Shown one piece after another: positions 56,795-57,608 of a stretch of DNA of 64,000 nucleotides. This DNA comes from Escherichia phage CCU7. Position numbers and translations under genes: made by a program. Below the pieces are notes generated by a model. It was given only the letters and a program-made list of their open reading frames with translations, was not told the origin of the DNA and ran no database searches. The number at the start of each line of letters is the position of its first letter. Position 1 is the first letter of the stretch. The stretch lies in the sequence record PV806175.1. The stretch is one strand, 5' to 3'.

Positions 56795-57093
56795 TGGCTC
56801 AAATCCTATCAGGCTTTGGAACTCATTATGAAGCATCTAGACGCATAACTGAAAGCAATCCTTTTGGCCTTGTTCCTAAGCACAAGAAAATTCAAAGCCT
56901 TGATGACTTTGAGAACCGCCTATGGGCCCTCTTTAATGAGTACAAGGCATATCTGAAAGAAGACGCTGACGATTGTCTTGAAGAAGATGAGATTGCGTAT
57001 TACGAACAACGCCTTGAACAGCTCAAGAACTTCCATCAGGTTCGTGACGAAGTATCTAAAGCAGTTAAAAAGTTAATTCCTTTCAAAGAGTAG
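56794..57093 (+). CDS. hypothetical small protein (99 aa)
   Basis: ORF coupled to upstream gene; immediately upstream of regB promoter. Confidence 0.5.
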
Positions 57094-57141
57094 TTTACTT
57101 CTCCTCTAGTTGTGTTACTATAGACCTGTCAACTAGAGGAG
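57093..57141 (+). promoter_or_regulatory. early promoter whose stem-loop sequesters the regB RBS
   Basis: GTTTAC, 17-bp spacer, TACTAT in loop of perfect 12-bp inverted repeat CTCCTCTAGTTG / CAACTAGAGGAG; the 3-prime arm is the RBS. Confidence 0.6.
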
Positions 57142-57149
57142 AAATCAAA

Positions 57150-57608
57150 ATGACTATCAATTCGGAAGTTTTTATCCGCCGTAATAAACTCCGTCGAATC
57201 TTTGAAACGGAGTTCCGCAAAATAAATGCCGGTATAAAAGATGCTGCAAAGTCTTTTGGACTACCAGGCTTTCATATCAAGTATTCTCAACATCTCTTAG
57301 ATCGCGCCATCCAGAGAGAAATAGATGAGAATTACGTTTTTGAATTATTTCATAAAGTAAAAAATCATGTTAAAGAAGTTGCAGAATTTTTATCAATGCC
57401 GGCACGTCCAGATGTTGATGAAGATTTTGTCGAAGGTGTCGAATATCGCCCAGGCCGTTTAGAAATAACTGATGGAAATCTTTGGTTAGGACTTACAGTC
57501 TGTCGCGAAAATCCAGCATTCAAAATGAAGACTCTTCAATGTAGAATGGCTATTATTAACAGTAAACGACTACCAGGAAAAGCTTCTAAAGCAGTGATTA
57601 AAATCTAG
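57150..57608 (+). CDS. regB: RegB site-specific endoribonuclease
   Basis: 152 aa (T4 RegB 153 aa); N-terminus MTINSEVFIRRNKLRR and synteny denV...regB...tk; RBS GAGGAG in stem-loop. Confidence 0.65.
   Translation: MTINSEVFIRRNKLRRIFETEFRKINAGIKDAAKSFGLPGFHIKYSQHLLDRAIQREIDENYVFELFHKVKNHVKEVAEFLSMPARPDVDEDFVEGVEYRPGRLEITDGNLWLGLTVCRENPAFKMKTLQCRMAIINSKRLPGKASKAVIKI

Follow-up and report, generated by a model that had tools for sequence, protein, structure and literature searches.

Promoter-embedded hairpins predicted to sequester the ribosome-binding sites of the early genes regB and denV in Escherichia phage CCU7

In the 64,000-nucleotide stretch of Escherichia phage CCU7 analysed here (PV806175.1; hereafter the window), the early genes regB and denV are each preceded by an inverted repeat that overlaps the promoter and ends in the Shine-Dalgarno sequence (SD), raising the question of whether these repeats decide which transcripts of the two genes can be translated. 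The first-pass annotation had proposed that RNA started at the local promoter begins in the hairpin loop without the 5' arm, while read-through RNA carries both arms and hides its SD. The coordinates of this design agree with the sequence (Table 1): the regB repeat brackets the -10 and its 3' arm contains the GAGGAG SD, with the 12-bp repeat originally noted (CTCCTCTAGTTG, 57101-57112) extending to a perfect repeat of 14 bp, and denV follows the same design with a perfect 10-bp repeat whose 3' arm likewise holds the SD. The identity of regB is borne out by 99% matches to annotated regB / site-specific RNA endonuclease.

Table 1. Positions of the regB and denV cassette features and of the other hairpin loci discussed in the text.
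Feature	Position	Strand	Detail
vs.3 stop	57091-57093		TAG; overlapped by the regB -35 hexamer
regB promoter -35 hexamer	57093-57098	+	GTTTAC; from sequence; T4 early-promoter pattern GTTTAC-N17-TAnnnT with TGn
regB 5' arm (anti-SD)	57099-57112	+	TTCTCCTCTAGTTG; within promoter spacer; perfect inverted repeat
regB extended -10	57113-57121	+	TGt + TACTAT; in hairpin loop; from sequence and cassette scan
Predicted regB transcription start	57128	+	G; 7 nt after the -10; from promoter geometry
regB 3' arm	57130-57143	+	CAACTAGAGGAGAA; holds SD GAGGAG (57136-57141)
regB CDS	57150-57608	+	Endoribonuclease RegB, 152 aa; ATG at 57150; from ORF list
denV promoter -35 hexamer	53884-53889	+	GTTTAC; from sequence; early-promoter pattern
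denV 5' arm (anti-SD)	53890-53899	+	TTCCTCCAAG; promoter spacer; perfect 10-bp inverted repeat; from sequence and fold
denV extended -10	53905-53913	+	TGa + TACTAT (hexamer 53908-53913); in loop
Predicted denV transcription start	53920	+	A; 7 nt after the -10
denV 3' arm	53928-53937	+	CTTGGAGGAA; holds SD GGAGG (53931-53935)
denV CDS	53941-54354	+	Endonuclease V; ATG at 53941; from ORF list
Gene e late-promoter hairpin	53088-53115	+	AAUACCUCCUAU / GUGGGAGGUAUU; lysozyme gene; positive control; true e ATG at 53116
P45998 cassette	46010-46066	+	Probable further member; -35 at 45998-46003
mobD.2a early promoter	60746-60804	+	Weak member; spacer UCUCC (60753-60757) pairs with GGAGA (60792-60796)

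The predicted transcription starts bear out the proposal that local transcripts would begin in the loop, as they precede the 3' arm by 2 nt (regB) and 8 nt (denV) and follow the 5' arm by 16-20 nt; at regB, the T4 position homologous to the predicted start is the A of ATCAG. Because of this 16-20 nt interval, an error of several nucleotides in the start site would still leave the 5' arm untranscribed, and the regB 5' arm is accordingly predicted to be absent from RNA made at the local promoter. Folding of both transcript forms, the check that had been suggested at the outset, found the SD paired in the long RNA and open in the locally started RNA. In the long form, the repeat is the dominant helix at both genes (regB, -29.0 kcal/mol, z = -3.1; denV, -24.7 kcal/mol, z = -2.7), the hairpin from -35 to ATG amounting to -21.6 and -19.1 kcal/mol, respectively, and the regB 5' arm pairs with the SD in the minimum-free-energy as well as the centroid structure. 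The unpaired probability of the SD core was 0.00 in the long form vs. 0.78 in the short form for regB, and 0.00 vs. 0.37 for denV. Helices this stable are expected to cut initiation by orders of magnitude. Among 51 gene starts in the window, the most occluded SDs were those of denV, regB and gene e (unpaired 0.00 each). Gene e served as a positive control (hairpin, -16.3 kcal/mol), its T4 counterpart being an experimentally proven case of RBS sequestration by a promoter-containing hairpin (PMC3014915).

Whether long RNAs reach the two genes bears on this proposal. A terminator scan found no convincing + strand terminator between upstream promoters and the regB or denV cassettes, and from this absence we infer that read-through into both genes is plausible; Rho-dependent termination upstream may still occur and would count against it. 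The two hairpins themselves were considered as intrinsic terminators and rejected, given the missing U tract and the absence of scan matches: the 3' arm is followed by A-rich sequence (AAAUCAAAAUG at regB, AUUAUG at denV), which does not qualify as an intrinsic (Rho-independent) terminator. In addition, an Rfam search of 52500-58000 at E <= 1 matched no family.

Could the repeats have arisen by chance? The genome is AT-rich and repetitive and its SDs resemble one another, conditions under which a functionless palindrome might be met. Counting perfect arms of 10 bp or longer around a loop no larger than 40 nt, we found 9 inverted repeats in the window vs. 3.3 +/- 2.0 expected from block-wise dinucleotide shuffles, and at 12 bp or more there were 2 vs. 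0.23 expected, one a terminator (8138-8171) and the other the regB repeat. Both the regB and the denV repeats are among the 9, and each coincides exactly with an early promoter and an SD, making a chance origin unlikely. Taken with the permutation test (p ~5e-5) and the cross-genus compensatory changes described below, these expectations effectively refute the notion of a functionless chance palindrome, to which we assign a practically negligible probability.

The design is not confined to the two genes. In a scan of 44 early-promoter cassettes (13 in the window and 31 in T4), the promoter interior paired with its own 5'UTR at a mean of -10.1 kcal/mol vs. -8.1 with the 5'UTRs of other cassettes (permutation p ~5e-5), and the own-5'UTR pairing energies were bimodally distributed. 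Ten of the 44 reached -15 kcal/mol or lower, each with rank 1-4: regB and denV of both phages as well as T4 nrdC.8, modB, motB.2, ndd.4, alc and alt.-3. As judged by predicted pairing, the design is common to roughly one in four early promoters of T4 and the window, reaching far beyond regB and denV. At the P45998 cassette, a probable member with T4 homologues at three T4 promoters, the spacer GUUCUUCCGUGGU (46010-46022) and ACCUUGGAGAAU (46055-46066) form a helix that contains a bulge and G.U pairs, the latter sequence being the SD of an 87-aa ORF starting at 46070; this SD is unpaired at 0.01-0.13 in the long form vs. 0.55 in the short form. The mobD.2a promoter is a weak member at best (SD unpaired 0.16-0.24 long vs. 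0.58 short), its pairing of just -10.5 kcal/mol being no better than the non-cognate background. At six other early promoters of the window, inverted repeats surround the -10 and leave the SD untouched. SD sequestration therefore fails to account for all promoter-overlapping repeats, and a second shared function is possible.

Conservation speaks to what has been selected. SD pairing is retained in regB and denV orthologues across at least 8 Tevenvirinae genera, with at least 8 stem sequences in three layouts, counts that do not represent independent events as orthologues share descent and cassettes move between genes. For regB, pairing is kept in Mosigvirus, Tequatrovirus, Dhakavirus, Kanagawavirus, Karamvirus, Gaprivervirus, Tegunavirus, Jiaodavirus and two further lineages, while the stem outside the SD varies (CUAGUUG, CUUGACUG, CUUUAUG, UGUAAG, UGUAG, UUUUAGU). 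The regB of one Marfavirus has the promoter yet an open SD, making this the sole such genus at either gene; regB of RB49 and PspYZU05 has no recognisable local promoter and its SD is open. Among denV orthologues, which carry many unrelated cassettes, all of ~30 distinct T4-like cassettes have an SD unpaired at 0.10 or less in the long form, with the anti-SD at either -23 to -28 or -4 to +1 relative to the predicted start; in four large-genome relatives without a T4-type promoter at denV, the SD is unpaired at 0.39-0.70. As a MAFFT alignment of 14 cassettes had the 3' arms out of register, which would render RNAalifold meaningless, it was set aside and pairs were aligned to the GGAG within each minimum-free-energy helix. 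In the resulting table of 18 cassettes, positions -2, -4, -5 and -6 beside the SD displayed 3-4 Watson-Crick pair types. Furthermore, of 22 cassettes, 10 folded better as the sense than as the antisense strand by more than 3 kcal/mol (by as much as 9.9) and only one showed the opposite, because the imperfections of the stems are G.U pairs; these sense-strand G.U pairs point to selection acting on RNA, not DNA. A shift of the anti-SD out of the spacer and into the -10/+1 region, with the SD remaining the pairing partner, would be difficult to account for without selection for SD occlusion as such.

On this basis, we think it likely, with some reserve, that the repeats are promoter-embedded sequestrators of the RBS, leaving regB and denV translatable only from the RNA of their own immediate-early promoters. 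All parts of the first-pass interpretation that could be tested in silico held, and it appears supported to that extent. We postulate that the anti-SD resides in the untranscribed interior of the promoter, usually as the 10-14 nt that begin the -35/-10 spacer and, in some relatives, in the -10-to-+1 region. A polymerase that had set out from any early, middle or late promoter further upstream would transcribe both arms, and as the SD emerged it would fold into a hairpin (about -19 to -22 kcal/mol) that blocks 30S binding; RNA from the local promoter, starting 2-8 nt before the 3' arm, would lack the anti-SD and be translated. With T4 early promoters going off 2-3 min after infection, and the short regB transcript also being cut in its SD by RegB, the net effect would be a brief burst of protein at immediate-early times, to which later read-through RNA would add nothing. 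One potential leak is the vs.3 stop codon 5 nt before the regB 5' arm, where terminating ribosomes could loosen the helix at its SD end and permit some coupled initiation.

Several points on RegB bear on this picture. [quoted passage not shown] While T4 regB is cut by RegB, T4 denV is resistant, and grafting an A-rich tract into T4 denV caused its SD to be cut efficiently in vivo (PMC1702504); this graft-dependent cleavage implies that accessible denV SDs exist early in infection. RegB sites conform to GGAG followed by an A-rich, C-poor stretch of 7 nt (GGAGAAUAAAA); the window regB site (GGAGAAAUCAA) is near this consensus with one C, and denV reads GGAGGAAAUUA at this position. RNA secondary structure shields GGAG from RegB (PMC3014915; PMC1702504), and, as a point against sequestration, RegB or ribosomes may act on nascent RNA before it folds, as discussed for modB by Durand et al. 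(PMC1702504).

Other roles for the hairpins have to be weighed against translational control. At T-even internal-protein (IP) loci, early-promoter cassettes of ~70 bp contain an overlapping inverted repeat, and the PeSL papers view such stem-loops as terminators and recombination sites (PMC2839356; PMC4122927). By extension, the repeats here may be PeSL-like module boundaries, attenuating or terminating upstream transcription and serving, through their conserved sequence, as recombination sites in gene shuffling, with SD pairing incidental. We deem this unlikely while granting it a small real chance, in that IP loci with such cassettes adjoin denV, the cassettes are evidently mobile (the cassettes of T4 denV and of a Dhakavirus regB are almost identical, and the former has its loop and 3' half in common with the window regB cassette), and the -10 repeats of the six window promoters mentioned above spare the SD. 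However, the A-rich sequence in place of a U tract and the lack of terminator-scan matches do not favor termination, the SD is the paired partner in all promoter-bearing genera but one despite relocation of the anti-SD, and the sense-strand G.U bias speaks against a recombination signal at the DNA level; mobility and SD sequestration are, moreover, compatible with each other. A palindromic operator shared by the early promoters and bound by a repressor was also considered and rejected, since the stems differ between promoters and their imperfections are sense-strand G.U pairs.

Alternatively, the hairpin may be a stability or processing element of read-through RNA whose purpose is not translation control. 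It might shield GGAG against RegB, offer a site to RNase III or, once cleavage has taken place, protect the upstream message as a 3' stem-loop. Selection on the sense RNA and the protection of GGAG from RegB by structure (PMC3014915; PMC1702504) are in keeping with this idea, as is the finding that regB, modB, nrdC.8 and motB.2, all T4 genes with the design, are RegB substrates. T4 denV, however, has the hairpin while its SD resists RegB for reasons of sequence, implying that RegB protection cannot be the general reason for the hairpin; where the 5' arm lies at -4 to +1, stems of 6-11 bp would be poor RNase III substrates, and a helix burying the SD blocks initiation regardless of any other role. 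We regard this alternative as quite unlikely. Very unlikely, in our estimate, is translational coupling, whereby only ribosomes terminating on the upstream ORF would open the hairpin of read-through RNA: although the upstream stop is near the 5' arm (5 nt at window regB, 7 nt at window denV) and the first nucleotides of this arm pair with GGAG, the stop-to-arm distance is unconserved among orthologues (5 to ~12 nt), in most of them no more than 0-2 of the 10-15 bp in the helix would come apart under a terminating ribosome, and the start codon is 50-60 nt past the stop codon.

If sequestration of the RBS by the promoter-embedded hairpin holds, its reach may be considerable. We are evenly divided on whether T-even phages employ a general "own-promoter-only" translational gate for immediate-early genes at about a quarter of their early promoters. 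If they do, the gated genes (regB, denV, alc, modB, nrdC.8, motB.2, ndd.4) would be silent on all later read-through RNA, and the gate, together with early-promoter shut-off and RegB cleavage, would confine potentially toxic takeover proteins to a hard pulse, thereby contributing to the abrupt and incompletely explained fall in early protein synthesis; the gate would also move along with the mobile promoter cassette. Such an arrangement would explain how a nuclease said to require tight control avoids synthesis from long read-through RNAs, and would give a functional reason for part of the cassettes described as early promoters with an overlapping inverted repeat, until now treated as modules for recombination or termination. 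In practical terms, it would be a compact, portable part making expression dependent on which promoter fired, and deleting or swapping intergenic cassettes would alter translation besides transcription, a point of relevance to annotators and phage engineers.

Compared with known systems, the cassettes resemble PeSL and PeSL-like elements in being short intergenic modules (UP-like A/T tract, early promoter, stem-loop, SD and ATG) that recur in hyperplastic regions beside IP genes and are exchanged between loci; the early-promoter module is indeed repeated (13 in the window and 31 in T4, most with inverted repeats), and one and the same cassette occurs at T4 denV and a Dhakavirus regB. PeSL stem-loops, however, are described upstream of or within the promoter with a terminator or recombination role, SD pairing lying outside their definition, whereas the regB and denV hairpins have no U tract and their conserved property is the pairing of the SD. 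General SD-sequestering leader hairpins, as in translational coupling, RNA thermometers and riboswitch expression platforms, likewise pit a local helix against the 30S subunit at the SD; unlike these, regB and denV would need no ligand, temperature or upstream ribosome, the switch being the promoter that made the RNA.

The closest parallel is the late-promoter class comprising e, soc, 49, I-TevI/II/III, segB and Aeh1 mobE, and the analogy with e and soc drawn in the first-pass annotation, shifted to early promoters, is apt. As in this class, where the SD or AUG is hidden, RNA from upstream promoters would bury the SD while RNA of the internal promoter would lack the 5' strand; the same logic has been experimentally established for e, soc, 49 and I-TevI, and the internal-promoter transcripts of the class that lack the 5' strand are translated (PMC3014915; PMC2988022). 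All known cases of the RBS-sequestering mechanism were late genes according to a 2010 review (PMC2988022), and the two 2010 reviews list it for late genes only. Our literature search, which did not reach the older T4 papers, found no explicit account of SD sequestration at T4 early promoters. Potential stem-loops before ipIII, ipII, denV and orf61.9, the last of which is probably regB, were reportedly described by Valerie et al. in 1986 (Nucleic Acids Res 14:8637), and early promoters with an overlapping inverted repeat at the IP loci are said to have been described by Repoila et al. in 1994 (EMBO J 13:4181). On these accounts, the bare stem-loops may have been noticed long ago. At regB and denV, as in the late class, the SD lies in a stable helix and transcription is predicted to start between the arms, but both are early genes with early promoters. 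The differences from the late class are as follows: 1) the internal promoter is a sigma-70-type T4 early promoter (GTTTAC-N17-TGnTAnnnT) rather than a late one (TATAAATA); 2) the timing is inverted, as the gate would permit translation immediate-early only instead of late only; 3) the anti-SD is itself part of the promoter spacer or discriminator. Judging from their sequences, regB and denV are thus a distinct variant that would work like the e/soc class, and such a mirror image of the late-gene mechanism in early promoters would add a post-transcriptional layer to the temporal control of T4.

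The regB and denV genes, correctly named in the first-pass annotation, are each preceded by a perfect inverted repeat in which the 3' arm contains the Shine-Dalgarno sequence (SD) and the 5' arm (anti-SD) lies in the spacer of an early promoter (Table). The repeats had been described as 12 and 9 bp long; their existence is confirmed, but their actual lengths are 14 and 10 bp. Both promoters match the T4 early pattern (PMC2988021), comprising GTTTAC, a 17-18 nt spacer, TGn and TAnnnT. Sequence identity of the region is 99-99.8% with RB69-like Mosigvirus phages (e.g. Shigella phage Shf125875) and about 80% with T4. 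Perfect inverted repeats of ≥10 bp with a loop of ≤40 nt number 9 in the 64-kb window vs. 3.3 +/- 2.0 in shuffles, while for ≥12 bp there are 2 vs. 0.23 expected, namely the regB repeat and one at 8138-8171. The latter, a perfect 15-bp repeat with a 4-nt loop (AACGAAAAAGGGACC / GGTCCCTTTTTCGTT) and A and T runs on its flanks, looks like a bidirectional intrinsic terminator.

Table. Window coordinates of the regB and denV cassettes, upstream promoters and related repeats
Feature	Coordinates	Sequence or remark
regB -35 hexamer	57093-57098	GTTTAC
regB 5' arm	57099-57112	TTCTCCTCTAGTTG
regB extended -10	57113-57121	TGT TACTAT
regB, between extended -10 and 3' arm		AGACCTGT
regB 3' arm	57130-57143	CAACTAGAGGAGAA; SD GAGGAG at 57136-57141; followed by ATCAAA, then ATG
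regB gene	57150-57608	ATG at 57150
Early promoters upstream of regB	54625 and 54990	
denV -35	53884-53889	GTTTAC
denV 5' arm	53890-53899	TTCCTCCAAG
denV extended -10	53905-53913	TGA TACTAT
denV 3' arm	53928-53937	CTTGGAGGAA
denV gene	53941-54354	ATG at 53941
Promoters upstream of denV	50858 (early)	also the late promoter of e
Gene e late-promoter hairpin	53088-53115	conserved in the window
SD-sparing repeats	41923-41949, 42280-42307, 47005-47028, 49577-49604, 50870-50895, 61204-61235	

When the long form, i.e. read-through RNA carrying both arms, was folded with 121 nt of context, both the minimum-free-energy and centroid structures were dominated by the repeats (regB, -29.0 kcal/mol, z = -3.1; denV, -24.7 kcal/mol, z = -2.7), whereas RNAs from the predicted local start were not significantly structured (-5.9 and -2.1 kcal/mol; z = +0.1 and +1.5, respectively). 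For both genes, the SD core had an unpaired probability of 0.00 in the long form vs. 0.78 (regB) and 0.37 (denV) in the short form, and the most occluded SDs among the 51 gene starts of the window were those of denV, regB and the lysozyme gene e. At -21.6 (regB) and -19.1 (denV) kcal/mol, the two hairpins match or exceed the e helix (-16.3 kcal/mol) in stability; T4 e is the classic example of the promoter-in-hairpin mechanism, for which a 100-fold effect on translation has been reported (PMC3014915). The true start of e in the window is ATG 53116 (MNIFEML...), while the closest GenBank relative annotates the internal ATG 53131. Separately, a terminator-like hairpin (GGAGGACUCCGGUCCUCC, then UUUU) lies at 47650-47706, just 5' of e.5, the SD of which is predicted to be occluded (0.01 unpaired).

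Transcripts from the local promoters would lack the 5' arm, as had been proposed, since the predicted starts lie 16-20 nt 3' of this arm; they are also 2 nt (regB) and 8 nt (denV) upstream of the 3' arm and, given these distances, a start-site error of several nt would not alter the conclusion. On the + strand, a terminator scan from the upstream promoters to the regB and denV cassettes found no terminator-like site and the sequence 3' of both hairpins is A-rich, not U-rich, so read-through is predicted. Downstream of the 54990 promoter are an SD and a short ORF that is not annotated; it begins at 55051, 50 nt ahead of the vs.8 start as annotated and in another frame; the -35 GUUUAC of this promoter pairs with GUAAAU just 3' of the SD (region 54990-55101).

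We consider it fairly probable that regB and denV are translated only from their own promoters. Polymerase arriving from upstream would transcribe the anti-SD about 30 nt ahead of the SD, and the hairpin would close as the SD emerges, thereby blocking 30S binding; polymerase from the local promoter would yield a leader of 21-22 nt in which the SD is exposed. The earlier proposal that the SD is sequestered on read-through RNA and open on local transcripts is supported by all computational tests run. Since T4 early promoters are turned off 2-3 min after infection and RegB cleaves its own short transcript at the SD (PMC3014915; PMC2988021), such a gate would limit synthesis to a pulse at immediate-early times. 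This would fit the kinds of genes involved (a nuclease, the ADP-ribosyltransferase ModB, the host-transcription inhibitor Alc) as well as the placement of denV 3' of e, a gene with heavy late transcription. Indirect support comes from T4 denV, in which an A-rich tract grafted behind GGAG led to efficient SD cleavage by RegB in vivo (PMC1702504), showing that accessible denV SDs exist early in infection.

The arrangement recurs among orthologues. Sequences upstream of regB were gathered from contigs in IMG/VR and from phages in GenBank; among them, the helix of anti-SD and SD is UUCUCCUCUAGUUG in Mosigvirus, UUUCCUCUUGACUG with two G.U pairs in Tequatrovirus, a perfect 15 bp (UUUCUCCUCUUUAUG) in the Salmonella STP4-a-like lineage, UCUCCUGUAAG in the Citrobacter CF1-like lineage, UCUCCUGUAG in Dhakavirus and a perfect 12 bp (UCUCCUUUUAGU) in Kanagawavirus. 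Karamvirus and Jiaodavirus have an outer UCUCC / GGAGA helix that encloses an inner hairpin at the -10, and in Gaprivervirus and Tegunavirus the -10 plus discriminator forms the 5' arm, with the 3' arm running from the SD into the start codon. The SD in these helix-bearing lineages is 0.00-0.39 unpaired in the long form vs. 0.57-0.94 in the short form. The exceptions are informative: one Marfavirus has a promoter but only a hairpin around the -10 (SD 0.68 unpaired), no local promoter could be recognised in RB49 or PspYZU05 (0.64-0.65), and Aeromonas phage Aes012, an ambiguous case, has a promoter-like match and one weak upstream partner (long-form SD, 0.16).

About 30 distinct T4-like cassettes precede denV, all with an occluded SD (≤0.10 unpaired), the partner of which occupies one of two stereotyped sites, either in the spacer (-23 to -28 from the predicted start) or between the -10 and the start (-4 to +1). 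The stems are diverse (CUCCAAG, CUCCUGUAG, CUCCGUUUG, CUCCUGUG, GUCCUCC, AGUAGCCU, UAGUAGUCU and others). Four relatives without a detected T4-type promoter, three from 345-380 kb genomes and one T4-sized, have SDs 0.39-0.70 unpaired. When 18 non-identical cassettes were anchored on GGAG, the partner of the four SD positions was CUCC, apart from an occasional U.G, and helix positions -2, -4, -5 and -6 beside the SD each display three to four Watson-Crick pair types, indicating that the helix is kept while its sequence changes.

To what extent early promoters share this feature was gauged from 44 promoter-plus-gene cassettes in the window and 128 kb of T4, by comparing the duplex energy of each untranscribed promoter interior and its own 5'UTR with all non-cognate combinations. 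Cognate pairs averaged -10.1 vs. -8.1 kcal/mol (permutation p about 5e-5) and were bimodally distributed; SD-pairing is the trait of a discrete subset, not of early promoters in general. Ten cassettes reached ≤-15 kcal/mol with rank 1-4 of 44: regB and denV in both the window and T4, and T4 nrdC.8, modB, motB.2, ndd.4, alc and alt.-3, whose promoters embed an anti-SD (-15 to -24 kcal/mol); in several of these the pairing includes 2-3 G.U pairs. Reported RegB substrates include regB, modB, nrdC.8 and motB.2 (PMC1702504). The window cassette at 45998 is a probable further member and that of mobD.2a a weak one; the repeat of T4 ipII (-13.6 kcal/mol) is of another kind, with the -10 at its centre. 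A T4-type early cassette also lies inside the late-gene block (9493-9557, + strand) ahead of an 89-aa ORF (ATG 9555), with its -35 region UUGUUUAC pairing with GUAAACAA between SD and AUG.

A palindrome or cruciform acting in DNA would be an alternative to RNA pairing. Among 22 cassettes folded as sense and reverse complement, the sense strand was better by >3 kcal/mol in 10 (up to 9.9) and the antisense in one, owing to imperfections that are G.U pairs on the mRNA-sense strand and A.C mismatches on the other; this favours selection on read-through RNA. SD sequestration does not extend to six other early promoters of the window, where inverted repeats bracket the -10 and end near the predicted start, without involving the SD; their stem sequences differ, and both imperfect ones have sense-strand G.U pairs.

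The stem-loops might instead be terminator or recombination modules, as in the view of promoter-early stem-loop (PeSL) elements. Cassette mobility is indeed clear: T4 denV (1803-1866 of sequence L001) and a Dhakavirus regB (about 80-141 of sequence L103) carry a near-identical cassette, TCTCCTGTAG ... CTACAGGAGA, and the loop and 3' half of the former are common to the window regB cassette (57116-57141), so whole cassettes appear to move between genes. However, the PeSL view does not account for the SD as constant partner at regB and denV, the shifts of the anti-SD within the promoter or the strand bias, and the hairpins have no U tract. Both explanations can hold at once, as a translational gate would move along with the mobile cassette. 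At some genes the hairpin may serve to protect against RegB or RNases, but T4 denV is RegB-resistant for sequence reasons (PMC1702504). Translational coupling is unlikely as a general explanation, given that the distance from stop codon to arm varies from 5 to about 12 nt.

None of the Rfam families covers the hairpin feature. Stem-loops ahead of denV and orf61.9, which we take to be regB, were reportedly remarked on in a 1986 study, and the bare structures have probably been seen before. Early promoters of IP loci with overlapping inverted repeats have been cited as PeSL-like analogues, and no role in translation was ascribed to them (PMC2839356). RBS sequestration is an established principle at late promoters; the cases listed in two 2010 reviews are all late ones (PMC2988022, PMC3014915), one stating explicitly that the genes regulated by a promoter within a hairpin are all late (PMC2988022). 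What would be new is a translational gate specific to early promoters, together with its breadth and conservation, as a variant of the late-promoter principle: in the T4 hairpins of the e and soc type the promoter inside is late, whereas in those of regB and denV it is early.
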